Under the pieces are notes generated by a model. That model had not been told where the DNA came from and ran no database searches. It worked only from the letters and a program-made list of their open reading frames with translations. From contig OY729418.1 in the NCBI GenBank assembly GCA_963422275.1, forward strand, positions 839,750 to 903,749: 64,000 nucleotides of DNA, given 5' to 3'. This DNA is from Paracoccaceae bacterium. GTDB lineage: Bacteria; Pseudomonadota; Alphaproteobacteria; Rhodobacterales; Rhodobacteraceae. This document shows, one piece after another, positions 1-16,643 of the stretch. The translations under genes were made by a program, and so were the position numbers. Within the stretch, counting starts at the first letter, position 1, and each line of letters opens with the position of its first letter.

Positions 1-144
1 CGATGCAGCGCCAAGTCGTGCGCCCGCCACACATGCTTCTGCGATCGGTTCCTGTCGGCGAAGATTTGCTGCCAGCGCCGCCGGTCGTCGGATGGCATCG
101 TGAATGATCGCCTGGTCGCATCTCTTCTCTCCCTTCTGCATCAT
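1..144 (-). CDS. 5' end of an ORF running off the left edge; function unknown (weak resemblance to N-termini of SIS-domain sugar-phosphate isomerase-like proteins)
   Basis: My own minus-strand translation. ATGATG at 144/141 has GAAGGA about 14 nt upstream, and the frame is open to base 1 (MMQKGEKRCDQAIIHDAIRRPAALAANL...). It is co-directional with, and downstream of, the aldolase-like gene. It is absent from the ORF track because fewer than 60 aa lie inside the window. Confidence 0.25.
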   Translation of the reverse strand, partial: MMQKGEKRCDQAIIHDAIRRPAALAANLRRQEPIAEACVAGARLGAAS

Positions 145-448
145 TGCGAAAGGCGCATCCTTCGGGAGGAGAAGAGAAAAACTATCGTCTAGGTTGGCGC
201 GACCGGGTTCGTTACAGGCGCTCAGAAGGGACTGTATCTCGAATACCCGGCAAGCGGCAAAATTAAGACGCGCTTCGGATTTCTGGATGATCAAGAGCAG
301 GAAGCCAGTCGCGACCTAGGTGACGATCGATCACGTTGTCGTCTTCCGACCGCTCGGTTTCCACACGATGGAGAAGCTCCCCAAGGAGCAGCCTGGCCGC
401 GGCCAGATGATCTTGGCACGGACCAAGTTGCAACGCAAGCAGCGGGGG

Positions 449-1438
449 CTACAAATCATGCAGCAGCGCGGGCTCGGTGACTTGGATGTCGTCTTCCAGA
501 CTGCGTTTCGAGGCAATGCCCCTGGCTTTGATGTGGGAATGAAACGCCCGCACCGCCTCCGCAGTGTCGATGTCGCCCTGAACCACCATCCGCATCGTTT
601 TCAGGATCTGCTCCGGATCTTCGCTGAACAGGATCTTCCTGCCGAACAGCGCCACCCGGGCGCCGAACTTTTCGCTCTGCCGAACAAGCTCAAGCGTGTC
701 GCGGGTCGTGCCTGCGCCGCCGCCGAGAACTCCGACAATGAGGTTCCCCGGATCGTAGCGGCACAAATCCTCCATTGCGCGCGGCCCGTTGAAGGGAATC
801 TTCAGGAACTCCGGCCGTTCCGCCCGGGTCAGGCCTGCAAGACAGCGGACGATGCAGTCGTTCACGAAATCCGGAAGATCGTCCTTCGCGATGCCGACGT
901 CGATCTGCGGATTGAACACTTCCAGGAAATAGCGAAGCCCCGTTCCGGAAATGTCGTAAAGAAATCGATGAAAGCAGTTAAGGAACTTCAGGTCGCTGTC
1001 GATGTCGTTGGAAAAAGTAATGGAGTAAAGCCCCAGATCGACCATCCTTGCCGCGACCTCGGCATTCGCCGAGCGGAACTCGCGGGCTGGAGCGGTCTTG
1101 TAGGCCGAGTGGCGTGGACCCCAGATGTCCGTGGCGTCGTTCAACCGAACAGCCGGGGTGACAGCGGAGCCTTCGAACAGCCCCCCTTCCACTAGCCGCT
1201 CGGCCGCCGACATCGACATGAGCATGATGTCGGCAAGCCCGGTCCGGGTGATGTCGCGCATCGCCTGAAGATGCTCCGGAAAAGACCTGAAGCGCCCGGA
1301 CTCGTCCTTCTTCGGGCCGAATGCCACCACGCCGCCGCCCATGTCCCCGTCCTTCGCGTCTGCAATCACGAAATCCGACGGGCGGTATTCTCCGCCGCGG
1401 ATTCTCGCAAGTTTTCGATCCAAGCTTCTGTCCATCAA
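449..1438 (-). CDS. class I aldolase-like TIM-barrel protein (DhnA/FbaB/LsrF-like superfamily); substrate unknown
   Basis: 329-aa ORF, last gene of the sugar ABC operon. It has alternating beta/alpha character and a G-rich phosphate-binding-like stretch (VGVLGGGAGTT). The opposite-strand ORF 320..1195 is an antisense artefact. Confidence 0.6.
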   Translation of the reverse strand: MMDRSLDRKLARIRGGEYRPSDFVIADAKDGDMGGGVVAFGPKKDESGRFRSFPEHLQAMRDITRTGLADIMLMSMSAAERLVEGGLFEGSAVTPAVRLNDATDIWGPRHSAYKTAPAREFRSANAEVAARMVDLGLYSITFSNDIDSDLKFLNCFHRFLYDISGTGLRYFLEVFNPQIDVGIAKDDLPDFVNDCIVRCLAGLTRAERPEFLKIPFNGPRAMEDLCRYDPGNLIVGVLGGGAGTTRDTLELVRQSEKFGARVALFGRKILFSEDPEQILKTMRMVVQGDIDTAEAVRAFHSHIKARGIASKRSLEDDIQVTEPALLHDL

Positions 1439-1502
1439 TGCACCTCGGTTGAATTTCGAAGAAATACGGATAACCCACCCCGCCCGGCTTCCAAGTTTTA
1501 CC

Positions 1503-2342
1503 TCAGATCTTGACGGACCCAGCGGTCATGCCCGCAAAAAAGTATCGCTGCGCGATCAGATAGGCCAGCAGAAGCGGAAGGGAGCCCAGCACGCTCATCG
1601 CCATCATTTCGTTCCACTCGTAGGCATGCTGACCCATCAGCAACTGAATCCCGATCGGCACCGTGCGCATATGCATCGACTTGGTGAGTGTCAAGGCGAA
1701 CAGGAACTCGTTCCAAGCCAGCAGAAAAGTGTATACGCCCGTGGCCACAATGCCCGGAATCGAAACCGGCACGACAACGCGCCAAAGCGCGGTCCAGCTC
1801 GATCCGCCGTCAACCAGCACCGCCTCGTCGAGGTCTCTCGGCAAGGTGTTGAAGTAACCCGTCATCATCAGAATGGCGTAAGGCAGCGTGAACACCATGT
1901 AGGTCAGGATCAGGGCATAGTAGGTGTCGAACAGGCGGAATGCCACAACCAGCCCGAAATACGGGATCAGCAACGTGATTGGCGGAACCGTCTGAGTGCT
2001 GATGATGAAAACGTTCAACGGCTTCTTGAGCCGGAACGAATACCGACTGAAGCTATAGCCTGCCAAGATCGCGATCAGCAGCGTAAGCAGGGTGACCACG
2101 CCTGCGACGAGGTAGCTGTTAATGAAAAACCGTATCTTCGTGGCACTGGCGAAGATTGCCAGATAGGCGCTCAGAGTGAACTCCTTGGGGAGCAGGGTCT
2201 GCGGAACGGCGAATATCTCGGTGTTCGACTTGAGCGAGCTGAAAATCATCCACAGAACTGGAAACATGACGAACACCAGACCAGCGGCAAGCCCCGCATA
2301 GGTGGCGACCGTCAGCCAATCGGTCCGTCGGCGCCCCGGCAT
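1503..2342 (-). CDS. carbohydrate ABC transporter permease (MalG/UgpE-like)
   Basis: 279-aa multi-TM ORF with an EAA-loop-like segment (LDEAVLVDGGSSWTALWRVVVP). It lies 3 bp downstream of the partner permease. Confidence 0.85.
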   Translation of the reverse strand: MPGRRRTDWLTVATYAGLAAGLVFVMFPVLWMIFSSLKSNTEIFAVPQTLLPKEFTLSAYLAIFASATKIRFFINSYLVAGVVTLLTLLIAILAGYSFSRYSFRLKKPLNVFIISTQTVPPITLLIPYFGLVVAFRLFDTYYALILTYMVFTLPYAILMMTGYFNTLPRDLDEAVLVDGGSSWTALWRVVVPVSIPGIVATGVYTFLLAWNEFLFALTLTKSMHMRTVPIGIQLLMGQHAYEWNEMMAMSVLGSLPLLLAYLIAQRYFFAGMTAGSVKI

Positions 2343-2345
2343 CGG

Positions 2346-3305
2346 CTAGTCCCTCGCCTTCTGATGCTTGATGTAGAAGTAGGTTACGCACATCGACAGG
2401 GCTAGAACAACGATCGCGCTCGCCGACGCGAGCGAGAATTGATATTTGGAAAACGCGAGCTTGTAGGTGTACGTGCTCAGCATCTCCGTCGCATGAATCG
2501 GCCCGCCTCCTGTTGTCATCCAGACCAGCGGAAACACCTGCATCGTCCAAATGAAATCAAGAAGCGCGACGCTGATTATGATCGGGACCAGGTGCGGCAG
2601 CGTTATGTGCCAGAACTTTTCGAGTTCGTTGGCGCCGTCGATGCTGGCAGCTTCGTAAAGTTCTCCCGGAACGCCCTGAAGCCCGGCCAGAAGGCTCACC
2701 ATGAATAGCGGATAGCCTGCCCAGATGTTGACGAAAGTCAGCGCGTGAATCGCGGTGCTTGTCGATGCGAACCACTCAATGTTCCGGTCGGTGATGTTCA
2801 ATGCGGCGATTATGCTGTTGATCACTCCGCTCGGATCGAGCAGCAAGCGCCAGATGATCGCAATGATCACCGCCGTGAACAGCCACGGCATGATGTATAG
2901 AATCCGGAAAATGCTCCTGATCGCGGGATTGATCCGGCTCGAGTTCAGCAACACCGCGAAGAACAATCCAAGCAGGAAGTGAAACACGACGCTCATGATC
3001 GTGAAGTACAGGGTGTTGCGGACGGACTGCCAAAACACGTCATCCTGGAAAATGGTCTTGAAATTCTTGAGCCCCACGAATGAAGGGCTTGGCGTCATTA
3101 TTGCGCGGTCGAGGAGCGAATAACGGATCGCGACGATCATTGGAAAAAGCATCAGAACTGAAAAGAGGATAATCGACGGCGCGACGTAAGCGTACGGCGT
3201 CAGCAACCTGATGGTCTTGTAAGACAGCAACCTGGATCGAGGCGTTCTTCGAGAGTTCGTTCCGCCTTGCGCAACTGCAGGTTGCCTGTCCAAGAAGTTC
3301 AACAC
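2346..3305 (-). CDS. carbohydrate ABC transporter permease (MalF/UgpA-like)
   Basis: 319-aa multi-TM ORF with an EAA loop (YEAASIDGANELEKFWHITLP). Confidence 0.85.
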   Translation of the reverse strand: MLNFLDRQPAVAQGGTNSRRTPRSRLLSYKTIRLLTPYAYVAPSIILFSVLMLFPMIVAIRYSLLDRAIMTPSPSFVGLKNFKTIFQDDVFWQSVRNTLYFTIMSVVFHFLLGLFFAVLLNSSRINPAIRSIFRILYIMPWLFTAVIIAIIWRLLLDPSGVINSIIAALNITDRNIEWFASTSTAIHALTFVNIWAGYPLFMVSLLAGLQGVPGELYEAASIDGANELEKFWHITLPHLVPIIISVALLDFIWTMQVFPLVWMTTGGGPIHATEMLSTYTYKLAFSKYQFSLASASAIVVLALSMCVTYFYIKHQKARD

Positions 3306-3413
3306 TTCGCCATGTTTTCGGACGGGTCTGCTCCGCCAAGGTCCGGAATCGAATCAATTCCAATGCCGGGCGGGGTTAGATGCACCGCCCGACATTCGTT
3401 CGCTAGGATATGC

Positions 3414-4658
3414 CTAGAACTCGGCTTCCCACTTCTTCTGGGCCTTGGCCACCGCTTCTTCCACAGTCTGCTTGCCGTCGAGCATCAACTGGATTTCCTC
3501 GTCGAACATCCTCATCAACTCCTCCGCCACAGGAAGGCCGACGAATTCGTTCGCCAAGTATCCCGACTGGAATATCTCGAAGGCTTTTGCGAACAGCGAG
3601 TCGGAAGCCACGAAGTCCGGCTTGGCGTTCACGTTGCCGGGAAACGCATTGGCGATGGAAACGAGCTTGCTGTTGACTTCCTCGCTCATGAGGTAAGCCA
3701 CCAGCTTGAAGGCCTCCTCCTTGTGCTCGCTGTTTTCACTGACCCCAATGCCCCACGACGCATAAGGCAGGCCCCTGCGCCCGTCATAACCATCGACCGC
3801 CGGAAAGTCCGAAATCGTGAAATTCAGGTCTGGATTCCGTTCGCGGATCAAATTGATGTGCGCAAGCGTATCGACCATCATCGCGACCCGGCCGTTCACG
3901 AACTCCTCAACCTTGTCCTGCTCCTTCTTCGCGAAGGTGCCGGGGGATATCAGCCCCTCGTTGTACATGGACTGGATGAACTTCAGAGCGCTTGTCACGT
4001 CTTCGTTCTCCAAGTCGGGCTGACCATCCTTGAGCATGCTCTTGCCGGATGCCCAAACCCAGGACATCACATCGTTCTGGACGCCGTTCGGCGACTGGAG
4101 CGACAGCGGCAGGACCCAGCCGTACTGGTTCGCGGACTCGTCCGTCAGCTTTCTGGCCGCCTCATGGAACTCGCTCCTGTTCGTCGGAGGTGCGACCCCG
4201 GCCGCCTCCAGAAGATCAAGGTTCAGGAAAATCGGATAAATGAACGAAGCAACCGGGAACATGTAGCTGTTTCCGTTCAGCTTGATTATGGCTGCAACCT
4301 GACTGGCGTCGAAATCGGAAGCGGCCATCAAATCGTCGAGCGCGGCGATTGCCCCTTGCTTGGAAAGTCCGTTCACCCAAGCACCATCCAGACCCACGAC
4401 ATCGCTGAGCGTACCGCTTGCTGCCCCAACGACGATTTGATCACGGGTGCTGGAATAGGGTCCGCTGATCAGATTGACCTTGATCCCCGGGTTCGCGGCT
4501 TCGAAATCATCCATAATCCCACGGAACGAGCCTGCAGGCAGCTCCGGCTCCCACCATTGAATGAATTCGATCGTCGTTTGCGCCGACACTTTTACCATGC
4601 CGGAAACCGACACCAGCAATGACGACAACATTACCAATGCAACTTTCTTTATTTTCAT
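3414..4658 (-). CDS. extracellular solute-binding protein of a sugar ABC transporter
   Basis: 414-aa ORF with an N-terminal signal peptide (MKIKKVALVMLSSLLVSVSGMVKVSAQ). It is the first gene of the operon. The large plus-strand ORF 3267..4622 is antisense. Confidence 0.85.
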   Translation of the reverse strand: MKIKKVALVMLSSLLVSVSGMVKVSAQTTIEFIQWWEPELPAGSFRGIMDDFEAANPGIKVNLISGPYSSTRDQIVVGAASGTLSDVVGLDGAWVNGLSKQGAIAALDDLMAASDFDASQVAAIIKLNGNSYMFPVASFIYPIFLNLDLLEAAGVAPPTNRSEFHEAARKLTDESANQYGWVLPLSLQSPNGVQNDVMSWVWASGKSMLKDGQPDLENEDVTSALKFIQSMYNEGLISPGTFAKKEQDKVEEFVNGRVAMMVDTLAHINLIRERNPDLNFTISDFPAVDGYDGRRGLPYASWGIGVSENSEHKEEAFKLVAYLMSEEVNSKLVSIANAFPGNVNAKPDFVASDSLFAKAFEIFQSGYLANEFVGLPVAEELMRMFDEEIQLMLDGKQTVEEAVAKAQKKWEAEF

Positions 4659-4875
4659 CGTTTCCTCCTACTGTAGTTGGGATTTCCGGCTGGAACACCG
4701 GAAACCTGAGGCAATTGGTAAACAGTGGATTTTCCATTGTCAAATTATACCTTGTTCACGCGCGAGCGGTTTCAAGTCTCTCTTCAATGGAAGTGGCATC
4801 CGATCAAGAGCACGCTAAAAACCGATCGAATGTTCCAAAACGCAGCGGAATCTGGACAATTCGCATTCAAGCGGT

Positions 4876-6132
4876 TTGAATGCCGGCCGCATGCATTCAA
4901 TGCCACGCGCACTGCCGGAGAGTTTCATGGGCGAAAGAATCGTTCTCGGCCTCGGAAACAACATCGACTTCGAAACTGTGTGGAATCCCGGGCCAATCGA
5001 GAGGCTGATCATCGAATACAATGTTAAACCCGGAGAGATCGGCACCGAAGGGCCGATCGCGAACGTCCGCGATTTCGTCGTGTCGGTTCTTGGCTTCCTG
5101 AAATCCGGAACAGGCGGAGAGCGACTGCTGGCCTCGCAGGAATTGGCCTACCAGTTGGCGGGCATGTTCGAAGGCAAAATCACCGTCGGCGGGACTCCGT
5201 TTCGGGCGGCGATTGCCATGCACAAGATCGGATACACGCCCGGGCTTCATTTGGTGACAATGAACCATCACGTTCGCCGGTCGATCCCGGACGGCTGCCC
5301 TTGGGTTTGCTCCAACGACGAGAATGGAATCCATCCCCACATCATCGTTCAATTCGCGAAGCACTCTCGCATCCAGGCAGGCGATGTTTCGGTCGAGGCA
5401 AATAGGGCAAACCGCATCATTTATTCCAACGACCCGCATACGACCGATATGAACATCAGCCCACGTTTGGCGTCGTTGGCCGCAGACGCAGAGGTGTTCT
5501 TGATTTCCGGCTTCAACGCGATGCAAAGTGGCAAGCTGCTCGCGGCGAGGCTTGCGACGATTGCGGAAGTCGTCCGCTCGCTTCGCCCCGGAGCGGTGGC
5601 ATTCTACGAAGACGGCTGCTTTCCGCTTCCGGAATTAAGCATTCAGGTCCGCGACGCCCTTTCGAAATTCATTCACATACACAGCTTGAACGAAGACGAG
5701 CTGCAAGGACATTTGAACCGGAACATCCCGTTATTGGATCCCTTTGAAATACTACGGGCATTGCAGGATTTGCGAAAATTGATACCTGTTCCGACCATCA
5801 TTGTTCATACCGCCCAGTGGGCACTTGCATATGGCGCCAATCCCGACCGATACGCGACATCGCTGAAGGCAGGAATACACATGGCCTGCACGCGCATGCG
5901 GCGTGGCGATGACTTCGATCAGCTAGATTATATCGAAACGCAACGAATGCTGCCGCGCACAGATGGCTTGAAATTCGCCGCCGAACTCACCAAACTAGCG
6001 AAGGGTTTGGTTTGTTGCTATCCCAGCATTCAAATCGATGAAGCGGCGGCGACAACAATTGGCTTGGGCGATGCATTCGTCGGAGGCTTCCTGCCCATGA
6101 TTCTGCCGGCTTCCATCCAAACTTTCCCTTGA
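4876..6132 (+). CDS. ribokinase-superfamily sugar kinase, most like the ADP-dependent glucokinase/phosphofructokinase family
   Basis: 418-aa ORF divergent from the ABC operon. Motifs seen: GGTPFRAAIAM (GG-anion-hole-like), HSLNEDE (NxxE) and a C-terminal TTIGLGDAFVGGF (GxGD catalytic motif). The exact start is uncertain because several in-frame ATGs lie at 4876-4912. Confidence 0.55.
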   Translation: MNAGRMHSMPRALPESFMGERIVLGLGNNIDFETVWNPGPIERLIIEYNVKPGEIGTEGPIANVRDFVVSVLGFLKSGTGGERLLASQELAYQLAGMFEGKITVGGTPFRAAIAMHKIGYTPGLHLVTMNHHVRRSIPDGCPWVCSNDENGIHPHIIVQFAKHSRIQAGDVSVEANRANRIIYSNDPHTTDMNISPRLASLAADAEVFLISGFNAMQSGKLLAARLATIAEVVRSLRPGAVAFYEDGCFPLPELSIQVRDALSKFIHIHSLNEDELQGHLNRNIPLLDPFEILRALQDLRKLIPVPTIIVHTAQWALAYGANPDRYATSLKAGIHMACTRMRRGDDFDQLDYIETQRMLPRTDGLKFAAELTKLAKGLVCCYPSIQIDEAAATTIGLGDAFVGGFLPMILPASIQTFP

Positions 6133-6158
6133 GATCAGACCAGTTTTGATGCAACTGG

Positions 6159-6398
6159 GGAACCTCTGAATACAGCCTTCTATGTGGGCGTGGCACTGTG
6201 CATCCGGTGTGCGCCCACTGTCTTGCGCTGCAGCTTTTTTCGAGAGATCACGACCTGCAGCGCCTTCGGCAATTGACCTTTGCAAGCCTTGAATGCGACC
6301 GCAAGAAGCGCCGGACGAGACCACGATCCCGACTTCCGCCGCCAGCTGGAGCGCTGCGGACTGGCGCACCTGCCGTGTTCAGGAGATCAGGGATCATC
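6159..6398 (+). mobile_element. 5' fragment of IS5-family 'type A' element (internally deleted), interrupted by the composite transposon
   Basis: It starts with GGAACCTCTGAATACAGCC, like the copies at 17974, 28674 and (as reverse complement) 62475. It aligns to 28674-29376 of the reference copy with an internal gap and stops exactly at ...GAGATCAGGGATCATC. Confidence 0.8.
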
Positions 6399-6400
6399 TA

Positions 6401-6837
6401 GGTTGTGGACTCATTGATTTTGATCCAGAGGCGGATGGAGGCAATGGCGATTGCGGCGAGGAAGTTTCTTGCGAGCTTGTGATGGCGGGTCGCGATGCCT
6501 CGGAAGTGCTTGAGCTTGTTGAAGAAGCGTCCGACGTGGTTGCGTTGGCGGTACAGGTGCTCAGCCCGCCTCGCGAGCGTCCGATGGCGTGATCCGGACC
6601 CCCTTTTTCCCGCCCACGGCGTGCCGGTGCGCAGGATGTGAAAGATCCCGCTGATCGCTCGCCGGTCGTCCACCCGCGGAACGCCCCGCGGCTTGTCAGG
6701 CGGCAACGGCGAGACGATCGCCCATTCCGCATCCGTCAGATCGTGCCGGCCTCGCATCCTCAAGCTCCCACTGTTTGAAAGCTTGAATCACATCATCGCC
6801 GGAAAGAAAATCCCTTTTCCTTTATGATTACACGACC
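6401..6837 (-). mobile_element. IS427-group (IS5 family) element, copy 1, double-deletion derivative
   Basis: Ends are GGTTGTGGACTCAT... / ...ATGATTACACGACC. The 121-aa ORF 6398..6763 fuses the transposase N-terminus (MRMRGRHDLTDAEWAIVSPLPPDKPRGVPRVDDRRAISGIFHILRTGTPW) to its C-terminus (YRQRNHVGRFFNKLKHFRGIATRHHKLARNF...). Confidence 0.85.
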
Positions 6838-6897
6838 TGGGAGAATTGGAAGAGACCCAGGCCTGATTTCACAGCCCACCGTCATCCTGTTCTTGCC

Positions 6898-7116
6898 GTG
6901 AGGTGCCCTGATTGCGGTCGTGCCCCCGGCGTTTGGTGCCGCCGACCGAGCGGCCATATGGCGAATGATTTTCATACTGGCCGGAAGGCCGAGGCCGACC
7001 GGGTGTTTATAGACCAGCACGGGCCGGATGCGTCCATTGAGCGCGACGGCTGGGTGATTGATCCGCGCGGGCGCGTTGGCATTCGCCCGCAGCCTGAGCA
7101 ACTGGCATTGTTCTGA
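6898..7116 (+). CDS. hypothetical small Zn-ribbon-like protein
   Basis: 72-aa ORF with a GTG start. Its N-terminus has CPDCG...C...H spacing (MRCPDCGRAPGVWCRRPSGH). There is no clear Shine-Dalgarno sequence and coding status is uncertain. Confidence 0.3.
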   Translation: MRCPDCGRAPGVWCRRPSGHMANDFHTGRKAEADRVFIDQHGPDASIERDGWVIDPRGRVGIRPQPEQLALF

Positions 7117-7262
7117 AGCTGGCTGCCGATACTTCCCAGGGCGCGATCTGGTGCGCAGCTCGCGATCCTGGCTAACCAGTTTTCCTTGTGGAGAGGAACC
7201 AACTGGCCTCGCTTCGGCGGGGCTGTTTTCTTGCTATCACTCATAACGGCGCGCTTGCATGA

Positions 7263-7290
7263 TGCTATCATGTCAACTATATTGATAGCA
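7263..7290 (+). promoter_or_regulatory. candidate VapB operator (inverted repeat)
   Basis: TGCTATCA-N12-TGATAGCA is a perfect 8-bp inverted repeat ending 22 bp upstream of the vapB ATG. RHH-type antitoxins typically autoregulate through such palindromes. Confidence 0.4.
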
Positions 7291-7311
7291 CGCTGCAAAG
7301 GAACTTGAACT

Positions 7312-7551
7312 ATGGGCCAAATGACCGTTCGCAACATCCCAGATCCAGAGTATGCCGCTCTGAAACGTGTAGCCGCGTCCAACGACAGGAGCGCGGAGGC
7401 AGAGGTTCGGCATTTGATCGCTCAGCATGTCAATACTCTGGGCGGCGATGGCTTTGGATCAAAACTGGCTAGAAAATACAGCGGCATTGTCGATCAGGAT
7501 TTCCAGTTTGAACGCAGCGAGACAGCTAGCGATCCGGTGAGCTTCGAATGA
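7312..7551 (+). CDS. vapB: type II antitoxin, ribbon-helix-helix / FitA-VapB-like
   Basis: 79-aa ORF with N-terminal MTVRNIPDPEYAALKRVAASNDRSAEAEVRHLI, typical of Arc/RHH antitoxins. An AAAGGA ribosome-binding site is present, and the stop overlaps the vapC start (ATGA). Confidence 0.8.
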   Translation: MGQMTVRNIPDPEYAALKRVAASNDRSAEAEVRHLIAQHVNTLGGDGFGSKLARKYSGIVDQDFQFERSETASDPVSFE

Positions 7552-7988
7552 TTGTTGTTGATACAATGGTTCTCTCTGAGCCTTTCAAGCCCAAGCCCGA
7601 TCCTTTGGTGATCGAGTGGCTTAACCAGCAAGTCTCTACCGAACTGTTTGTGACCACGATCAATCAAGCGGAAATGGAGCATGGGCTTTGGGCCATGCCG
7701 GAGGGGAAACGCCGAGTGCAGTTGCATCGCGGTATCACCGAGCTTTTTGAGGTGGATTTCTCAGGGCGTGTTTTGTCCTTCGATTCCAAAGCGGCACTTA
7801 TGTTCGGCACGAACATTGCCCCTGCCCGGCAGAAGCATGGCAAAGATGCAATTAAGGACATGGATGGAATGATCGCAGCAATTGCAATCAGCCATGATCG
7901 GTGCCGCGTTGCAACGCGGGATCGCCGCCCGTTTGAATTGATGGGTGTTGAAGTGATTGACCCATGGTCAGGCCCTTCCGCCCACTAA
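7548..7988 (+). CDS. vapC: PIN-domain toxin VapC/FitB-like
   Basis: 146-aa ORF with N-terminal MIVVDT (first acidic PIN residue), further acidic positions (..EM.., ..DGMIAAIA.., ..TRD..) and a 4-bp overlap with the antitoxin gene. Confidence 0.85.
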   Translation: MIVVDTMVLSEPFKPKPDPLVIEWLNQQVSTELFVTTINQAEMEHGLWAMPEGKRRVQLHRGITELFEVDFSGRVLSFDSKAALMFGTNIAPARQKHGKDAIKDMDGMIAAIAISHDRCRVATRDRRPFELMGVEVIDPWSGPSAH

Positions 7989-8042
7989 GGGTTGCTGCCG
8001 GGACAAACCATGTCTGAACGCTTTCATCACAAGCCGCTATTA

Positions 8043-8638
8043 GGTTGTGTACTCATTGATTTTGATCCAGAGGCGGATGCAGGCGAGGGCGATTGCGGCG
8101 AGGAAGTTTCTTGCAAGCTTGTGATGGCGGGTCGCGATGCCTCGGAAGTGCTTGAGCTTGTTGAAGAAACGTTCGACGAGGTTGCGGTGGCGGTAGAGGT
8201 GCTCAGCCCGCCTCGCGAGCGCCCGATGGCGTGGTCCGGACCCCCTTCTTTCCGCCCGCGGCGTGCTGGTGGGCGCGCACCACCGAGGAGTAGAGGAGAT
8301 GAAGAGATCCCGGCGAGCCCGCCGCCAGCGCCCCGAACAGGCGCTCCCGCACCCCTTGCCTGGCCCAGCGGTTGCAGACTGTCGCCTGCGGCCCGCAGCG
8401 TTGCGGAAGGTCGCGCCACGGCGTGCCGGTGCGCAGGATGTGAAAGATCCCGCCGATCGCCCGCCGGTCGTCCACCCGCGGAACGCCCCGCGGCTTGTCA
8501 GGCGGCAACGGCGAGATGATCGCCCATTCCGCATCCGTCAGATCGTGCCGGCCCCGCATCCTCAATCTCCCACTGTTTGGAAACTTGAATCACATCAGCG
8601 CCGGAAAGAAATCCCTTTTCCTTTATGAGTACACGACC
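8043..8638 (-). mobile_element. IS427-group element, copy 2, single-deletion derivative
   Basis: Ends are GGTTGTGTACTCAT... / ...ATGAGTACACGACC. orfA (8203..8565) is complete. orfB lacks about 200 bp at the same GGTG-GGTG junction as copy 1. The slippery site is mutated (GGAAAGAAG). Confidence 0.85.
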
Positions 8639-8640
8639 TA

Positions 8641-9331
8641 GCCGAACGAGGGTTCTGCTGAAGGGATGCCACCATCATTTCGGCGCCGTCGTCGGCCAGG
8701 AACGAGAACAATGCGCACGGTCCGGAGATGCACCGGACGAAGAAGGGGAACCGGAGGCATTTCGGGATGAAGCTGCACGTCGTCACCAATCCCTGGGATC
8801 TGGTGCGCCCCACCTAGAGGGAACGGCCGCCAACGTCGCGACCTGACGCTCTCGGACCGGCTTCTGCACGGCGAGGGGAAACAAGTCCGCCCTGACGCCG
8901 GATATCGCTTGATCGGGAAGCGGGCGGAGCGCGCACATCGCGAGGTGGCATGGCACATTGCCATGGACCCCGGCGGGCAGCGCGGCTTCTCTGGCGGAGA
9001 CGGCGGAGGCCGGGGTGCAGCATCCGTTCCGGATCGCGAGGCAGGTGTTCGGATGACAAGGTTCGCTATCGAGGGCTGGAGAGGAACGCGCAGCGGTTTG
9101 CGCTGCTTCCGGGCTTCTCGAACCTGATGATTGCCCAGCCGCACCTGTCATGACAGGGGAGAGGAGAAGTGTGCCCGGAATCTGCCGGACCGGCCCTGCG
9201 GGGGCTGAAACGGCGGCGGTTCCGCCCCGAAAACGCGCATTAGGGGGTTTCTGGACTGCAGAAAACCGGTCGGCGGCCGGGAAGGGCAACTCCGCAGCCA
9301 CAGCCCTAAAAACCCCAAAATTAGAGGTTCC
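8641..9331 (+). mobile_element. 3' fragment of the same IS5-family 'type A' copy that starts at 6159
   Basis: It begins GCCGAACGAGGGTTCTGCTGAAGG, aligning to GCGGAGCAGGGGGTTTTGCTGAAG at 29379 of the reference copy. It ends ...TTAGAGGTTCC followed by CTAA. The translated frame is a degraded transposase C-terminal half. Confidence 0.8.
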
Positions 9332-9366
9332 CTAAGCGACCGTGCAGGCCTTCGTGGTCAGGTTAG

Positions 9367-10116
9367 CTAGCGTTCCGCCCAGCCGGCGAATATGTTTTCG
9401 AGCACAACCACGACATAGTAGAGAACGATCCCCAGAAACGCGAGAGCGATAAGAACCGCGAACATCAGCGGATAGTCCGAATTGGTTTTACCGCTGTCGA
9501 ACAACGCCCCGAGGCCGCGACCATGTGGGCTCACGATTTCCATCAGGTTCGTGCCAATGAAAGCAAGTGTAACGGAGACCTTCAGCGCCCCGAAGAACTC
9601 TGGCAGAGTCTTGGGCAAGGCAATTTTCCAAAAGATCGTGGACTGCGAGGCGCCAAGCGAGCGCAGGATATCTCGATACTCGGGCTCCAACGTCGACAAT
9701 CCGATGGAAACCGAAACGGCAATCGGAAAGAATGAGATCATGAACGCAATCATGATCGTGTTGAAATCGTGTGCGCCAATAAACAGGAGCGCAATGATCG
9801 GCACGACGGTAGCCTTGGGGATGGCGTTGAAACCCACAAGCAACGGATAGAGGGCATCGCGCATGGTACGCCAGAACCCCATGATCATTCCCAGCACGAC
9901 TCCGGCGAGGATGGCGATCAGCAGGCCAACGACCGTGCGCCAAAGCGTCTGCCAGCCCATCACCAGAAAGAGCTTCCAGAATTTCACGACCGCTGCCGGC
10001 AGATCGGATGGCGAAGCCATGATGTAATTCGGCCAATCGTTGACCCAGACCAGTACCTCCCAGAGCCCCAAAAAGACGATCATTGCCGCGACGGGAACGG
10101 CAATTCTGCGAATCAT
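9367..10116 (-). CDS. ABC transporter permease, NitT/TauT (nitrate/sulfonate/bicarbonate) family
   Basis: 249-aa multi-TM ORF that overlaps the upstream ATPase gene by 4 bp. Confidence 0.85.
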   Translation of the reverse strand: MIRRIAVPVAAMIVFLGLWEVLVWVNDWPNYIMASPSDLPAAVVKFWKLFLVMGWQTLWRTVVGLLIAILAGVVLGMIMGFWRTMRDALYPLLVGFNAIPKATVVPIIALLFIGAHDFNTIMIAFMISFFPIAVSVSIGLSTLEPEYRDILRSLGASQSTIFWKIALPKTLPEFFGALKVSVTLAFIGTNLMEIVSPHGRGLGALFDSGKTNSDYPLMFAVLIALAFLGIVLYYVVVVLENIFAGWAER

Positions 10117-10913
10117 GCGGCGGCCTCCACATCCGCCAAGGGCTTGCCTTGGGCGATTTCAATCTGGCGGCGCAAAATGTTCAGCCGCTCGATGGCCTCG
10201 GGTGCGTAGAGATCATCCAGCACGCGCCGGCCAGTCGAAGACACGTTCATCACATACTGTGCCGTTGCCGGCCGTCCCGAAAGCACAACCACCTGATCGG
10301 CCAGAAAGATTGATTCCCTGAGATCGTGAGTGATCAGGACGCCGGTGAAGGGTTCTTCGGCCTTCAAACTGTGCATGGTCATCCAGAGATCTTCGCGGGT
10401 AAAGGCATCGAGCGCTCCGAAGGGTTCGTCCAAGATGAGCACTTCGGGCTGATGGACCAGTGCCCGGCAAAGGGATGCACGTTGGCGCATGCCGCCGGAG
10501 AGTTCTGAAGGGCGCTTGTCCTCGAACCCCTCGAGACCAACGAGGGCAAGCAGTTTGCGGGCCCGATCCTCCTTTTCCCGGCTTGAAAGCTTGGTTGGCA
10601 CGATCTCCAGTGGCAGCAAGACGTTCTTCAGGATTGATCGCCACTCCAACAGCACTGGGTTCTGGAATGCCATTCCGACCGTCGACCGAGGACTCTTGAC
10701 CCTTTCGCCATGCAACCGAACTTCGCCGCAGTCTGGTTTCATCAGCCCTGCAATCAGCCGTGTCAGGGTGGACTTGCCGCACCCTGAAGGACCGACCACT
10801 GCAACGAATCCGCCTTCGGGAATTGACATGCTTAGATCGTGCAGAACCGGCAAAGGCCGGTTGGCTGTGACGTAGGCATGAGTCACACCCCTAATTTCGA
10901 TCAGCCCTGTCAC
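10113..10913 (-). CDS. ABC transporter ATP-binding protein, NitT/TauT family
   Basis: 266-aa ORF with Walker A (GPSGCGKST), the signature LSGGMRQR and Walker B (LILDEPF). Confidence 0.9.
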   Translation of the reverse strand: MTGLIEIRGVTHAYVTANRPLPVLHDLSMSIPEGGFVAVVGPSGCGKSTLTRLIAGLMKPDCGEVRLHGERVKSPRSTVGMAFQNPVLLEWRSILKNVLLPLEIVPTKLSSREKEDRARKLLALVGLEGFEDKRPSELSGGMRQRASLCRALVHQPEVLILDEPFGALDAFTREDLWMTMHSLKAEEPFTGVLITHDLRESIFLADQVVVLSGRPATAQYVMNVSSTGRRVLDDLYAPEAIERLNILRRQIEIAQGKPLADVEAAA

Positions 10914-10972
10914 GGTCCTGTCACGATTTTATTGCTTGCAGACGGGCGGGCCACAGACAGACCCGCATCCGT

Positions 10973-11977
10973 TCAATTGATCATGAACCCACCGCCGTCG
11001 GGCAGGTAGGCATCCGTGAAGTAACGCGACGCATCGGGAGAATTCTGAAACTCGTAGGTCTCAGCCAATTGCTCCAGTGCCATCGCCATACGGGCCGCAT
11101 CGATACCGCCCAACCCATTGGCCTTGACCGACTCCGTCAATACATTCGCGTCGACCGCAAGCAGCAGTCGGCGCTTTTCAAGCGCGGCATCCGCCGCGGG
11201 GTTGCGTTCAACCAACGACGCAATCGCGGCGTCCGGGTTGGCAATCGCGTCCACCCAGCCATCGGCGACGGCTGCCAGGAAACTCTTGACCTTGTCCGGG
11301 TTCGCTGCGGCAAAATCGGTGTTGGCAATGATTGCGTTGCCGTAGAGTGCCAGACCGTAATCGGCCATCAAGATGGTCGAAATGTCATTCTCGGCAATGC
11401 CAAGGCGTACCAGATTCAGAAAGGACGAGAACGAAAATCCGGTGATCGCATCGACTTTGCCTTCAGCGAGCATCGGCTCACGCGTAGGGAAGCCCACTGG
11501 CTCGACAGTGATTTTTGCCATGTCCAGGTCATTGGCCGTCGCGAAGGCAGGAAACTGTGCCCACGCACCGTCCGGCGGCGGCGCCCCCAAAATGCGGCCC
11601 TCCAAGTCCTTTGGCACAGTGACGCCCAGACTCTTGCGGCCAACCACAGCGAAAGGTGGCTTGTCGTATATCATCATGACCGCCGTGACCGGTGCATCAG
11701 GGTTTTGATCCAGAAATTTGATCAGGCTGTTGATGTCTGCAAACCCAACCGGAAACGCGCCGGTTGCGACTTTTGGAATAGCATCGAGCGATCCCTGTCC
11801 CGCACTGATTTCGACGTCAAATCCGGCTTCCGCAAAATGGCCGTTGTCAATGGCGATGAAATAGGGGGCTGAGGGGCCTTCAAACTTCCAGTCCAAGGCA
11901 AAAGGCATCTTTTCCTGAGCGACGGCGACCGTCGCAATAAGGATACCGGCAACAGCCAGAATAATTCGGTGAAACAT
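10973..11977 (-). CDS. periplasmic substrate-binding protein, NMT1/THI5-like (NitT/TauT family)
   Basis: I moved the start to Met57 of the tracked ORF (MFHRIILAVAGILIATVAVAQE, a signal peptide), which is preceded by AAGGAG 8 nt upstream. Confidence 0.8.
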   Translation of the reverse strand: MFHRIILAVAGILIATVAVAQEKMPFALDWKFEGPSAPYFIAIDNGHFAEAGFDVEISAGQGSLDAIPKVATGAFPVGFADINSLIKFLDQNPDAPVTAVMMIYDKPPFAVVGRKSLGVTVPKDLEGRILGAPPPDGAWAQFPAFATANDLDMAKITVEPVGFPTREPMLAEGKVDAITGFSFSSFLNLVRLGIAENDISTILMADYGLALYGNAIIANTDFAAANPDKVKSFLAAVADGWVDAIANPDAAIASLVERNPAADAALEKRRLLLAVDANVLTESVKANGLGGIDAARMAMALEQLAETYEFQNSPDASRYFTDAYLPDGGGFMIN

Positions 11978-12639
11978 GGGGGAATTCTCCTTATGTGGTG
12001 ATTTGTTGACTAATCTCCCGCCTCGCTTGCGATACAACCTGTCAACGCCTGGACCGTGAATTCGAGGTGCAACAGTAGCATTGGAGCGTCCTATTTGGCA
12101 ATGGCATTGCCTCAAGGAAACAGGACATTTCCTTGCTAAAGGCACTTGACAATATACGATGTCGTTTCAACCCGCCGGGCGGGTTCCCGAACCTCTCGTC
12201 GTTCGTGCAGGCGGCGATGACGTACCGCCTCAGCGCCGTCGGGGAGTCCCCTATTGTTTCTCTAATCGGTTTGGCGGCGCAAGGCCGAAGCAATGCCAGA
12301 TCCTGTGCAGTGTCCAGCGCATGGCGGCCCGGGGTGTGCCCGAAACGGTATGCGAGAGCATGTCCCCGACATTATTTCTCCGCGACCTACACGTTGCCCG
12401 GTGGCAGACGGCGTCGACACACAGGCCGCCCACCCTTCCCTTATACAGTGCTTCTGCCCACCGTTGCGTCGGTATCGATCTCCTCAAGACACCGACGGTC
12501 TTCTACCCCGACAGTGAACGATCCCCGCGCACATTGCGGAGACTCCTTCAAGATGGGTCGCGTTTGGACGCCCAATCGGTATCCGTTTCGCGCTGTACAC
12601 TGCCGCCCCGCATGGGATTCATTTGCTTCAAATACAAAG

Positions 12640-14310
12640 CTAGAACAGCCCCTCAATCTGTCCAAAGTCGTTCAGGCGAATAGATTCGGCCGCGGGAACT
12701 CTCGGAAGCCCCGGCATGGTCATTATCTGCCCGCAGATCGCAACCACGAAACCGGCCCCCGCAGATAGCCGCACCTCTCGGACCGGCAGCTTGTGCCCTG
12801 TCGGGGCGCCTCGCAAACTCGGATCCGTGGTGAAACTGTACTGCGTCTTGGCCATGCATACCGGGAGGTCTCCGTAGCCATCATCCTCCCAGTGCTTGAG
12901 TTGATCGAGAATTTTCTGGTCCGCCTGAACTTCGTCTGCACGGTAGATGCTGCGGGCAACCGTTTCGATCTTCTCGAAGAGGCCCATCTCGTCGGGATAG
13001 AGAGGCGCGTACTGCGCGCTGCCGCCCTCCACAAGCTCCACGACTTTCCGGGCCGCTTCCTCTGCGCCTTTTCCGCCGTTAGCCCAATGCCGGCATATGC
13101 AAGCGTCGACGCCCAACTCTGCACAGTAGTCCTTGATCGCTTGCACCTCCGCGTCGGTGTCGGTCACAAAATGGTTGATGCCGACAATTGCGGGCACACC
13201 GAATTTTGCCACGTTTTCGATATGGCACCCCAGATTGGCGCATCCCCTGCTCACGGCATCGACATTCTCGGCGGCAAGATCGGCTTTCGCCACGCCACCG
13301 TTCATTTTCAGCGCGCGGACGGTCGCCACGATCACGACCGCTTTCGGCGCCAGCCCGGCCTTGCGGCACTTGATGTTGAAGAACTTCTCTGCCCCAAGAT
13401 CCGCACCGAATCCAGCTTCGGTTACGACGTAATCGGCAAGCTTGAGGGCCGTCGTCGTGGCGACCACCGAATTGCACCCGTGCGCGATGTTGGCGAATGG
13501 CCCGCCATGAACGAAGGCTGGATTGTTTTCCAGCGTCTGAACCAGATTGGGTTGCATCGCCTGTTGCAGCAAGACCGTCATCGCTCCTTCGGCGTTGACG
13601 TCCCGGCAATAGACGGGCGAGCGATCACGCCGATAGGCCACAATGATGTCCCCGAGACGTTTCTGCAGATCGTCAAGATCCGTGGCGAGGCAAAGTATTG
13701 CCATGACTTCAGAAGCCACGGTGATGTCGAATCCGGCCTCCCGTGGAAAGCCGTTCGCGACTCCGCCGAGTGACGTGGTGATCTGCCGAAGCGCCCGATC
13801 GTTCATGTCCAGCACGCGACGCCAGGCAACCCTTCGAGTATCGATCTCCTGCTTGTTTCCCCAGTAGACATGATTGTCGATCATCGCTGCGAGAAGGTTG
13901 TGCGCCGATGTTATGGCATGGAAATCTCCGGTGAAGTGAAGATTCATTTCCTCCATGGGCACCACCTGCGCCTGACCGCCGCCTGCCGCGCCTCCCTTCA
14001 TCCCGAAGCATGGACCGAGCGAGGCCTCGCGAATGCATAGCATCGCGTTCTTTCCGATCGCGTTGAGGCCGTCGCACAATCCGACTGTCGTCGTGGTCTT
14101 CCCTTCGCCTGCCGGTGTCGGATTGATGGCTGTCACCAGTACCAAATTGCCGTCATGGCGATCCTGCACCGACTTTATGAACTGTTCGGAAACCTTGGCC
14201 TTGTCGTGTCCGAACGGGAGAAGATGCTCTTGCGGAATGCCGAGTCTTTCTCCAATTTCCTGAATTGGCTTCTTGTTGGCCTTGCGTGCAATCTCGATGT
14301 CTGTTGCCAT
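12640..14310 (-). CDS. fhs: formate--tetrahydrofolate ligase
   Basis: 556-aa ORF with the characteristic N-terminus ([22 protein letters not shown]), the P-loop region ([14 protein letters not shown]) and full-length collinearity with FTHFS. Confidence 0.95.
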
Positions 14311-14341
14311 TCATTCACTCCTTGGGTGTCATCAAGACGAT

Positions 14342-15259
14342 CTATTCGCCCAATTTTGTTCCGACTTTCAGATCGGTCTGGGCCACCCATTCTCCTGCAG
14401 CGACCTTCGCACCGCCGCTGGGTCGCACTCGCTTGGCAAGTATTCGTCCGCCTGCCGCCTGAATCGCGATTCCACCTTTGTCGACTGCCATGACTTCTCC
14501 CGGGCTTCCGGCACCCTCTGTCTTGGCGGCATCGAAGATCTTCAGTTCTTCGCCGCCAACGGTGGTCCAAGCCCCCGGCGCAGGGTTGGTTCCACGGATC
14601 AGGTTGTACACGTCGTCAGCAGGCTTGGCCCAATCGATTTCGGCATCTGACTTGCGGCACCAAGATTCGTATGTTGCCTTGCTTTCATCCTGTTGCAGTC
14701 GTGGAGGATTGCCTGTCCTGAAGAGGTCGCAGACTTCCAGAACTGAATCGACGCCGGCAGGGTAGATTTTCTTGAAGTAGAGATCGATCACCGTGTCGTC
14801 CGGACCGATATCACATTCCCACTGAAGAAGGACGTCGCCCTCGTCCAGCCCGTCGGTTGGATAGAACCAGCTGAAACCCGATTTCCTCGATCCCTGGATG
14901 ATCGGCCAGTTGACCGCGCTAGGTCCTCGGTGCAATGGCAAGAGCGACGGATGGAAGCAAATCGATCCCATCTTGGGAATGTCTCGCACCTCTTCCGGAA
15001 CGAACAGGACGACGTAGGCCATGACCATTAAATCAGCGTCATGCGATCGAAGTGTCTCGATCACTTCCGGGTCCTTGAATTTTGGAGGCTGGAATACCGG
15101 CAACCCCTTCGCCAAGGCGAATTCCTTGAGCGGGTCTGTTGGCCTGCCTTCCTTGTCAGGCGCGCAGTAGACCGCAGCGACTTCGTCCTTGCCAGCTGCA
15201 AGAATCTTTTCGAGCGCGTCCTTGCCGAACGCCTGCTGGCCCATCACGATTAATTGCAT
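14342..15259 (-). CDS. formyltransferase-fold protein resembling the N-terminal hydrolase domain of 10-formyl-THF dehydrogenase (Fmt-like N and C domains)
   Basis: I moved the start to MQLIVMGQQAFGKDALEKIL, which follows GAGAGGAAG. Motifs seen: HPSLLPLHRGPSAVNWPII (formyltransferase catalytic His/Asp region) and a C-terminal Fmt-C-like beta-barrel. It lies 31 bp upstream of fhs. Confidence 0.75.
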   Translation of the reverse strand: MQLIVMGQQAFGKDALEKILAAGKDEVAAVYCAPDKEGRPTDPLKEFALAKGLPVFQPPKFKDPEVIETLRSHDADLMVMAYVVLFVPEEVRDIPKMGSICFHPSLLPLHRGPSAVNWPIIQGSRKSGFSWFYPTDGLDEGDVLLQWECDIGPDDTVIDLYFKKIYPAGVDSVLEVCDLFRTGNPPRLQQDESKATYESWCRKSDAEIDWAKPADDVYNLIRGTNPAPGAWTTVGGEELKIFDAAKTEGAGSPGEVMAVDKGGIAIQAAGGRILAKRVRPSGGAKVAAGEWVAQTDLKVGTKLGE

Positions 15260-15387
15260 TTCAGGCTTCCTCTCATTCAACCGCTTTTTCATTGTCAATG
15301 TGCTTGCGCCGACCGCCCTTTCCAAACCGGCTCAAGTGTCAAACTGGATGATTCGTCAATGGTGCCCGACTAGCGGAATTCTCCTGA

Positions 15388-15417
15388 CCCGCTGCGGGGC
15401 AGCGCGGGCTTTTCTTC
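15388..15417 (+). terminator. orphan terminator-like hairpin plus T-run on the plus strand
   Basis: CCCGCTGC-GGG-GCAGCGCGGG is followed by CTTTTCTTC. No plus-strand gene lies upstream, so it sits antisense to the 5' leader of the fmt-like/fhs operon. Confidence 0.3.
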
Positions 15418-15633
15418 AAAGGTTCCGCAAAGTCCAAGCCCTAAACCAGGGTTTTGCGGCGTGCCTGAAATTGCGGAAAGATAAAACGGGCGCGAGCGCA
15501 AATCCTCGCATCGGGAGGCAAGCGTGTGCATCAAATTCGGAAGGGACGGCTTCCATCCAGCGACCTGTTGTATCGCTTCCACCGTCGCGCTTTCACCAAA
15601 GCGGGTCACGGGCCGTTTCCAAGGCCACGCTCA

Positions 15634-16350
15634 TCAGCGCCCTGCTTCCAAATCCTCAGATTCTCCAACGAAAAATTTCCATGTGCGCCGCACGTAATCA
15701 TGCAGCCTCAACGTGTGTCCCCTAACCAAGTCAGAGGCAAGTTCCTCATTCCTTGCTTCAATGGCCTCTATGATTTTCATGTGATCGACAACAGAACGGT
15801 CCGCACGCGATGTGTCGCGCATTGCACGACGCCGGATCGGTTTCAAGTGGGTGAACAGTTCCTCGCCGAGCTCTTGGAGCTTCTGGCAATTCGACAGTCG
15901 CATTATCGTTCCGTGAAACTTGATGTTGGCTTCCGAGTATTCGCTGAGGTTCGCCTTTGCCTCGTCCTCGGGAAACTGCATCCCGATCTGCCGAAGCATC
16001 GCGATGTCTTCGCCAGTCGCGACCGCGCAGGCCAGCCGTGCGGCCATGCTTTCGAGAGCTGCCCAGACAATTATCATCTCGAGGACTTCCCGCTTGCTTT
16101 TCCTGTTGATGAATATCCCTCTACGAGGCTTGATCGTAATGAACCCTTCCTGCTCCAGCCGGGTCAGCGCGTCACGGAGCGGCGTACGCGACACGCCAAG
16201 CTGTTTCGCCATCTTGCGCTCATCCAGCCGCAGGTCGGCAGACTCGCTGTAGACATCCACTTCAAGGACCGCCTCCCTCAACGCCGCATAAGTGAGATCA
16301 TTGAGCAGGAAATTGCTTTCGATTGGCTCAAGCCTAACTGAGGTTGCCAT
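15634..16350 (-). CDS. GntR-family transcriptional regulator (FadR/FCD subfamily)
   Basis: 238-aa ORF with a winged-HTH segment (ERKMAKQLGVSRTPLRDALTRLEQEGFI) followed by a helical FCD-like C-terminal domain. Confidence 0.85.
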   Translation of the reverse strand: MATSVRLEPIESNFLLNDLTYAALREAVLEVDVYSESADLRLDERKMAKQLGVSRTPLRDALTRLEQEGFITIKPRRGIFINRKSKREVLEMIIVWAALESMAARLACAVATGEDIAMLRQIGMQFPEDEAKANLSEYSEANIKFHGTIMRLSNCQKLQELGEELFTHLKPIRRRAMRDTSRADRSVVDHMKIIEAIEARNEELASDLVRGHTLRLHDYVRRTWKFFVGESEDLEAGR

Positions 16351-16382
16351 TCAGTTACCTAAGATTTGCGCGTTGTTTCGCA

Positions 16383-16643
16383 TTAACTTGCCTTTTGTGG
16401 TATACCATAGACCAGTGAAGCTTTTTGCACAACCGGCAAGCGAGCGGTTTTCGGAGCCGTAACGTCAAAAATCGGCATTTCCCAAGGTGGCAACGCGGCC
16501 GCAGCGAGGTACTCGTTGGGCTCAGATAATCCTACGGCGAGTGGACCATCCCCGACGTGCCCAAAGCATTCCGCATCCATAATGCCAAGCTGCAAGCGTT
16601 GATGAGCAAACCGAATTCCTTCGGAGGAGCACAATACGTGCAC
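16383..16643 (-). CDS. hypothetical ORF, no recognisable family; may be non-coding
   Basis: 86-aa tracked ORF that overlaps the presumed GntR promoter/operator region. No ribosome-binding site or motif was recognised. Confidence 0.15.
   Translation of the reverse strand: MHVLCSSEGIRFAHQRLQLGIMDAECFGHVGDGPLAVGLSEPNEYLAAAALPPWEMPIFDVTAPKTARLPVVQKASLVYGIPQKAS
16398..16407. promoter_or_regulatory. candidate GntR-type operator palindrome
   Basis: TGGTATACCA is a perfect palindrome of the GT-N-AC type, 48 bp upstream of the GntR start codon. Confidence 0.35.

Follow-up and report, generated by a model that had tools for sequence, protein, structure and literature searches.

Composite transposons consist of two insertion sequence (IS) copies that enclose a foreign passenger, as in Tn903, which has arms of the IS5-family element IS903, and in Tn9, which has directly repeated IS1 copies. 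Integron mobilisation units, integrons flanked by miniature inverted-repeat transposable elements (MITEs) and mobile insertion cassettes rely on deleted elements that have lost their transposase, retain intact ends and are moved by a helper in trans. Elements of the IS427 group are 800-1000 bp in size and duplicate 2-4 bp of their target, typically TA. In IS870, according to a citing account, the stop codon of the transposase gene is supplied by the target (Fournier 1993, cited in PMC13630536). Tn3-family transposons carry type II toxin-antitoxin pairs in the transposition module, beside the genes for the resolvase and the transposase (Lima-Mendez et al. 2020, PMC7157771). Our literature search for composite transposons that carry vapBC turned up only plasmid surveys. 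Here, we analysed a stretch of 64,000 nucleotides from a Paracoccaceae bacterium (positions 839,750 to 903,749 of contig OY729418.1; hereafter, the window), in which a vapBC toxin-antitoxin operon lies between two deleted copies of one IS. The whole unit, which is 2238 bp long and interrupts an IS5-type element, is probably a composite transposon with non-autonomous arms that was moved as a unit by transposition.

The layout of the locus was obtained by reading window positions 5900-9600 and by a self-BLAST of 6100-9400 against the window. The inserted unit occupies positions 6401-8638 and is located within the relic of an IS5-type element on the plus strand. The left part of the relic (6159-6398) covers approximately IS5 positions 1-160 and 400-487 with an internal deletion, and the right part covers 8641-9331. 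TA is present at both outer sides of the unit, at 6399-6400 and at 8639-8640, as the apparent left and right copies of a 2-bp target duplication. The left half of the relic ends in ...GGGATCATC-TA (6399-6400), and the right half opens with TA-GCCGAACGAGGG (8639-8640, then 8641), which places the unit in the context ...GGGATCATC-TA/unit/TA-GCCGAAC.... Two uninterrupted IS5-type copies, at 29320-29450 and at 61920-62050 (reverse-complemented), were aligned with the relic edges and read ...GGGATCACC-TG-GC(G/C)GAGC... unbroken. Because both copies are continuous across the same point, the relic halves abut, with 2 bp doubled. The TA of the relic corresponds to TG in the other IS5-type copies, and forms CTAG together with its neighbours. 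As in a composite transposon, a single target duplication surrounds the unit, and the target is contiguous in two unoccupied IS5-type copies. Likewise, two copies of one IS enclose the passenger (6838-8042, 1.2 kb), and both outer ends are intact, with the inverted repeats GGTTGTGGACTCAT and GGTCGTGTACTCAT. A preliminary description of the window had proposed the adjacency of the IS5 flanks in intact copies and the TA on both outer sides of the whole unit. The alignments bear out both proposals: positions 6398 and 8641 are adjacent in both intact copies, and a failure of this adjacency would have spoken against the nesting. The coordinates given there are correct, except that the inner end of the left arm is at 6837 rather than approximately 6840.

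Both arms are non-autonomous derivatives of the same IS. The left arm, L (6401-6837, minus strand), is a 437-bp IS5-family, IS427-group derivative, and the right arm, R (8043-8638, minus strand), is a 596-bp derivative. The longest copy of this IS in the window is copy 3 (55142-55947, minus strand; 806 bp). L, R and copy 3 all point the same way, and the transposase or its remnants are encoded on the minus strand. In a three-way alignment, both arms lack exactly positions 55301-55499 of copy 3 (199 bp). The deletion junction is the same in both arms, GGTA(C/G)AGGTG/CTCAGCCC, with GGTG microhomology at 6556-6559 in L and at 8198-8201 in R. L has a second deletion relative to copy 3: 169 bp are missing between a pair of imperfect direct repeats of 19 bp, whose overlap is at 6614-6632. 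On the coding strand, the slippery region reads GGAAAAAAGGGGG in copy 3, GGGAAAAAGGGGG in L and GGAAAGAAGGGGG in R. The motif AAAAAAG (A6G) of copy 3 is replaced by AAAAAG (A5G) in L and by AAAGAAG in R, and A6G is thus lost in both arms. In the open reading frames (ORFs) of the arms, Pfam recognises DUF4096, but of the DDE domain no more than the final quarter, and neither arm is able to produce a transposase. The 119-aa ORF of L corresponds to protein P0147 on the source contig, a 4,794,520-bp contig that carries the VapC and VapB proteins of this window. The transposase frame of L ends in ...ACC/TAG and that of R in ...ACC/TAA, with the stop codon derived from the target. The TA at 6399-6400, together with C6398, forms the TAG stop of the minus-strand frame of L. 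On the inner side, R is also flanked by TA (8041-8042), and L is flanked by TG (6838-6839).

Over shared columns, the pairwise identity is 94.7% for L and R, 95.4% for L and copy 3, and 95.6% for R and copy 3. L and R differ at 23 of 436 positions. The arms had been described as identically deleted, with a common deletion of about 200 bp at a GGTG junction and no slippery site. The common deletion, its junction and the loss of the slippery site stand, with the length now fixed at 199 bp; the arms themselves are 94.7% alike, and L carries the additional 169-bp deletion. Either an older deleted lineage had already given rise to both arms as distinct members, or the arms have exchanged sequence since. 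A gene-conversion tract around the shared deletion was considered and rejected, since L, R and copy 3 differ at evenly scattered positions and no tract is visible.

The passenger encodes an intact toxin-antitoxin operon between pieces of neighbouring genes, all on the plus strand. Its left end (6838-6866) comprises the last nine codons and the stop codon of a gene similar to that for a 214-aa protein (orf214), which is truncated by L. The TG at the inner flank of L (6838-6839) falls within a Leu codon, the third base of which varies in relatives (CTC, CTT and CTG). A Zn-ribbon ORF follows at 6898-7116 (Pfam Phage_zn_bind_8, E = 5.8e-9). Native relatives of this gene start with MPDFTAHRHPVLAVRCPDCG, and their ATG overlaps the upstream stop codon (ATGCCTGA). 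In the window, the native ATG is AGG (6859-6861) and only a downstream GTG at 6898 is left. The Zn-ribbon gene of the window is therefore N-terminally truncated or dead, and is probably inactive cargo. A terminator-like hairpin with a T tract, recognised by a consensus match only, is located at 7204-7235, between the Zn-ribbon ORF and the promoter region of vapB. The vapB/fitA-like gene (7312-7551) encodes a ribbon-helix-helix (RHH) antitoxin (Pfam FitA-like_RHH, E = 3.6e-12), and the vapC/fitB-like gene (7548-7988) encodes a full-length PIN-domain toxin (Pfam PIN). The stop codon of vapB and the start codon of vapC overlap in ATGA at 7548-7551. A small RHH antitoxin gene is thus located directly upstream of, and overlaps, a PIN toxin gene, which is the layout of type II VapBC/FitAB pairs. 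Residues 1-141 of VapC align with FitB (PDB 2H1O) with E = 5e-21, and D5, E42, D106 and D124 of VapC align with D5, E42, D104 and D122 of FitB. We take these four FitB residues to be those of the active site. The FitAB-like operon is intact together with its promoter region and is probably functional. A promoter scan of the passenger gave no sigma-70 consensus match, a result that is not informative for the source organism. The passenger ends with the first 11 codons of a 158-aa gene (orf158, 8010-8042), which is truncated by R and finishes with the inner TA of R at 8041-8042.

The native location of the passenger was recovered from other contigs. An exact-protein look-up of VapC identified the metagenome contig ctg4145l (L001), which also encodes an identical VapB protein. 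Positions 1-788 of L001 correspond to window 7255-8042 with 4 mismatches in 788 bp (99.5%). The match stops at a single TA right before R (8042), and L001 continues with an intact 158-aa gene (756-1232). Because the match ends at this TA and the gene continues intact, R had inserted at a single TA in orf158. A Rhodobacteraceae contig found with VapC (L015) is homologous from the boundary of L through the Zn-ribbon gene and vapBC and contains no IS there. The Zn-ribbon protein led to six metagenome loci (L023-L028) in which homology likewise runs from the boundary of L, again with no IS. Upstream of this point, L015 and the six loci continue into the end of the 214-aa gene, and the gene order in the six loci is a ParB-like gene, orf214 and the Zn-ribbon gene. 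The native target was A-TA-T for R and probably C-TG-G for L. The passenger is a contiguous foreign piece that ends at the inner ends of the arms, as in a composite transposon, and these comparisons identify it as one 1.2-kb slice of a locus that resembles a conjugative element, cut where L and R had inserted.

An origin of vapBC in a Tn3-family transposon was also considered, as the ORF upstream of the Zn-ribbon gene in L015 matches the DDE domain of Tn3 transposases. This match covers only profile positions 118-235, and the tail of the ORF that is homologous to the window belongs to the unrelated 214-aa gene. The ORF in L015 is a chimera, and a Tn3 origin for vapBC was therefore rejected.

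Copy 3 retains A6G and has a two-frame transposase with a -1 frameshift at A AAA AAG. Fusion of the two frames at A6G gives a 244-aa protein (...AAGGKK/GGPDHAIGRSRGG) that is colinear with single-ORF relatives of 255 aa. Its matches are 'IS5 family transposase' proteins in the thousands, almost all with a length of 255 aa. Against NCBIfam transpos_IS5_3 (NF033580; cut-off 110), the fused protein scores 233 bits, compared with 314 bits for P0002, a 255-aa relative. In Pfam, the transposase has DUF4096 at its N-terminus and DDE_Tnp_1 at its C-terminus. The terminal inverted repeats of the IS read GGT(T/C)GTG(G/T)ACTCAT, and the element ends are GG...CC. By these features, the arms and copy 3 are assigned to the IS427 group of the IS5 family, and the full-length element would measure approximately 848 bp, that is, the 806 bp of copy 3 plus 42 missing bp.

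The preliminary description had suggested that the unit was mobilised by a copy like that at 55142-55947. Copy 3 itself is defective and a poor candidate. Alignment with the 255-aa relatives shows that a 42-bp in-frame deletion has removed 14 residues, ADRGYDARAILKLI, including DRGYD, a stretch that presumably carries the second catalytic aspartate of IS5-family transposases; the Y-x2-R-x3-E-x6-K motif further on is kept. A stop codon is likewise missing, as the frame of copy 3 continues into the adjoining sequence, and the element is bordered by CA and TG instead of TA on both sides, with GGCC on either side. The loss of the 14 residues led to the rejection of copy 3 as the helper.

The IS family as a whole is a swarm of internal-deletion derivatives in which both ends are kept. 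The source contig encodes different internal-deletion versions of the transposase (P0013, P0024, P0072, P0139, P0145, P0149, P0151, P0152 and P0153), together with P0063, a complete second frame (OrfB), and P0136, a fused protein with a C-terminal frameshift. Further copies with other deletions are located on two contigs of metagenome ENA ERZ21742408, at 9894-10511 and 12804-13148 of L019 and at 9754-10526 of L020. Outside the unit, the L020 copy is flanked by TA on both sides, the L019 copy by CA and TA, and the partial L019 copy by TA at its single kept end; most IS ends examined have TA. The 169-bp deletion of L is also present in the L019 copy, which does not have the 199-bp deletion. This distribution implies that the deletion recurs at the 19-bp repeat or that copies exchange sequence. 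Deletion breakpoints recur at the 19-bp repeat near the frameshift site and at a GAGCAC site, which suggests deletion hot spots or exchange between copies.

The surroundings of copy 3 (54588-56200) look like a second nested or passenger-carrying structure. Copy 3 is located between a fragment of a DNA-methylase-like gene, recognised by eye only from an NPPCG motif, and the 3´ end of another IS5-family element. This 3´ end is homologous to 22304-22564, and the 5´ end of the same element, at 54588-54664, is homologous to 21593-21669.

The IS5-type relic that hosts the unit has a history of its own. Its terminal repeats are GGAACC...GGTTCC, and it is flanked by CTGG (6155-6158) and CTAA (9332-9335), the degenerate left and right copies of a 4-bp target duplication. 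Intact IS5-type copies are flanked by CTAG or TTAG, and the CTGG and CTAA of the relic are each one change away from CTAG. The left part of the relic is 80-88% identical to the copies at 17973-18133, 28919-29377 and 62476-61991, and the right part is approximately 79% identical to those at 29418-30118 and 61950-61246. A sister-strain contig, ctg5722l (ena:ERZ21742408), matches window 1-6156 at 99.3% in its part L022 and window 9017-17476 at approximately 99% in its part L021. Approximately 22 kb are located between the two matching blocks in ctg5722l, and the window lacks them. The L022 site beside an ADP-dependent kinase gene is an unoccupied CTAG (AACTAGTCAG), at which the relic starts in the window (AACTGG/GGAACC). 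In L021, the relic is located at the same chromosomal site, beside the same permease gene as in the window. Compared with the L021 relic, the right part in the window (9017-9335) is 99.5% identical and the left part (6159-6317) only 89% identical. Either the relic in the window is a hybrid of two IS5-type copies, or it marks where an IS-mediated deletion ended. As evidence for an unoccupied site, the L021 relic is uninformative, since it has lost IS5 positions of approximately 278-914, including the insertion point.

Another IS5-type copy is itself interrupted. In the otherwise intact copy at 28674-30117, a 217-bp MITE-like element (28692-28908) is bounded by terminal inverted repeats of 24 bp, A(T/C)TGCTTATGCACTTGGTTCCGGT, and seems to be flanked by a duplication of 8 bp, TAGCCTGA. 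At 27273-27710, a longer relative of approximately 440 bp still encodes what resembles, by eye only, a fragment of an IS1595-type zinc ribbon. In the region 27255-27710, this relative abuts a short left-end fragment of an IS5-type element.

The native neighbourhood of vapBC (L001 1506-6301) and the region of the sister strain next to the relic (L021 14632-20750) are both rich in defence-like genes. These include genes for an 838-aa HSP70/MreB-like protein and its partners, a BrxC/PglY-like protein, GmrSD and AAA_15/AAA_21 pairs, and AbiEi/AbiEii were found in L019. The defence-rich surroundings indicate that the elements described here lie in defence or mobile islands.

From these observations, a history of the unit can be proposed. 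An IS427-group element would have decayed in this Paracoccaceae lineage, and in one derivative a deletion between two GGTG motifs would have removed 199 bp of the catalytic core. Two members of the deleted lineage would have inserted, in the same orientation, into a locus with the order ParB-like gene, orf214, Zn-ribbon gene, vapB, vapC and orf158. L would have landed in the last codons of orf214, and R at a TA in codon 11-12 of orf158. A transposase from elsewhere may then have acted on the two outer ends of the unit, the left one of L and the right one of R, and the whole 2238-bp segment would have moved to a TA, in the context CTAG, inside an already degenerate IS5-group element, where this TA was duplicated. 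The arms have diverged by 5.3% from each other, the passenger by 0.5% from the native locus, and the surrounding chromosome by approximately 1% from the sister strain. Because 5.3% stands against 0.5%, the arms were not recently copied from each other and were already separate copies. The presence of the same core deletion at two different original sites implies at least one earlier movement of the deleted element in trans. Alternatively, the deletion may have passed between the arms by gene conversion, of which no tract is visible.

A single transposition of the whole unit, as had been proposed from the sequence at the outset, is the most economical reading of the locus. The same product could also arise if a solo deleted IS had first occupied the TA of the relic and an excised circle, consisting of the passenger with L-like and R-like arms, had integrated into this solo copy by homologous recombination. 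The genome offers good substrates for such an event, as it is dense with copies of the arms' IS that are 94-96% identical. Moreover, another recombination or deletion event, spanning approximately 22 kb relative to ctg5722l, has left its trace in the host relic. The deletions are also reticulate, with the 199-bp and 169-bp deletions in L, the 199-bp deletion only in R and the 169-bp deletion only in the L019 copy, and no working transposase was found in the window. However, this route requires more steps than one transposition and still needs a donor structure with two arms. No solo insertion is present at this position in the copies at window 29377, window 62000 and L022 16406-16741, all of which are uninterrupted, and the evenly distributed differences among L, R and copy 3 form no obvious mosaic blocks. 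We consider recombination unlikely on this balance, and infer that transposition rather than recombination moved the unit, with the transposase supplied in trans.

Misjoining of long metagenome reads across repeated IS copies, which would have produced a chimeric nest, is very improbable. The 4.79-Mb contig is derived from a metagenome and the region is packed with repeats, but a false join would not yield base-exact adjacency of the IS5 flanks and a 2-bp duplication. The junctions coincide exactly with the IS termini on all four sides, the 23 differences between the arms are easily distinguished in accurate long reads, and the ORF of L was called on the deposited contig (P0147). The possibility that L and R inserted independently into resident DNA and that no unit moved can practically be dismissed: R does have TA on both sides (8041-8042 and 8639-8640), and inner TAs had been named in the preliminary description as the sign of such insertions, but the inner TA of R is the single TA of the native target in L001, the DNA between the arms is not IS5 sequence and belongs to a different locus, and IS5 sequence continues immediately after the unit. 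Misassembly and other routes together still amount to only a small chance.

Several observations weigh against transposition of the unit. The inner flank of L is TG, and CA is found to the left of copy 3 and of the L019 copy. Either the target preference is not strict, or the true IS ends are AGG...CCT and the insertion occurred between T and A without a duplication; both descriptions fit the junctions equally well. The difference between the relic halves relative to L021 (89% and 99.5%) implies that recombination passed through the region at some time. All three IS copies in the window are defective, and no intact helper copy has been demonstrated. The unit itself was seen at one site only, and the exact VapC protein occurs on just two contigs. 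The deletion-junction pattern GCGGTASAGGTGCTCARCCCGCCTCG gave 0 matches in 185,579 species-representative genomes and JGI metagenomes, which is weak evidence because the source chromosome lies outside both collections. For the junction peptide ARRAEHLYRQRN, a protein search with the junction-spanning ORF of R found only the ORF of L itself, P0147. Exact-protein look-ups gave no match for P0063, for the Zn-ribbon ORF or for the OrfA of R, the last taken from a TTG start two codons ahead of the ATG chosen by the gene caller. The sister strain provides no unoccupied IS5 site, as the orthologous relic is deleted across the insertion point. A megablast search of the plasmid collection with window 6100-9400 gave no match, and the further occurrence of the same arm-flanked vapBC that the preliminary description proposed to look for did not materialise in the genome and metagenome collections searched.

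Understood as a composite transposon, the unit cleanly exemplifies a type of gene-capturing transposon that is already known, and not a new mechanism. It provides a natural example in which a toxin-antitoxin operon was cut from one mobile region and moved, and in which base-exact reconstruction is possible for both donor junctions and for the target site. The sharing of one core deletion by copies from two original sites implies mobilisation in trans of IS derivatives without a transposase in an uncultured marine alphaproteobacterium. The data also show a whole IS family decaying via many different microhomology deletions. These results add detail to known processes, and the understanding of these processes is unchanged. 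It is conceivable, though we think it rather improbable, that, in IS-saturated Paracoccaceae genomes such as this one, paired transposase-less derivatives form a recurrent capture-and-move vehicle for addiction and defence cassettes that depends on few helpers, and that vapBC might stabilise a repeat-rich region against IS-mediated deletions. One such deletion would be the neighbouring loss of approximately 22 kb relative to the sister strain, with its endpoint at the relic that hosts the unit.

The unit resembles Tn903 and Tn9 in its pair of IS copies around a foreign passenger, the use of the outer ends and one target duplication. Unlike those transposons, its arms lack the catalytic core and the frameshift site and can encode no transposase, and its cargo is a toxin-antitoxin pair instead of a resistance or catabolic gene. 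Compared with MITE-type units, the arms, at 437 and 596 bp, are long, and they stem by recent deletion from an identifiable IS rather than being short anonymous MITEs. The arms' IS shares with IS870 and the IS427 group a size of approximately 850 bp, a two-frame transposase with an A6G frameshift, short inverted repeats that begin with GG, a TA target within CTAG and a stop codon supplied by the target (CC/TAG in this locus). This likeness is one of features, and not every copy in the window is located at TA or CTAG (A-TA-T for R, probably C-TG-G for L, and CA/TG for copy 3). As in the Tn3 family, a type II pair rides on a transposable element; in contrast to the pairs of that family, the pair in this unit is plain cargo cut from a neighbouring locus. 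The putative toxin aligns over its full length with FitB of the FitAB system of Neisseria gonorrhoeae (PDB 2H1O and 2BSQ), keeps the four acidic residues of the PIN domain and is paired with a FitA-like RHH antitoxin, although the identity to FitAB is moderate.

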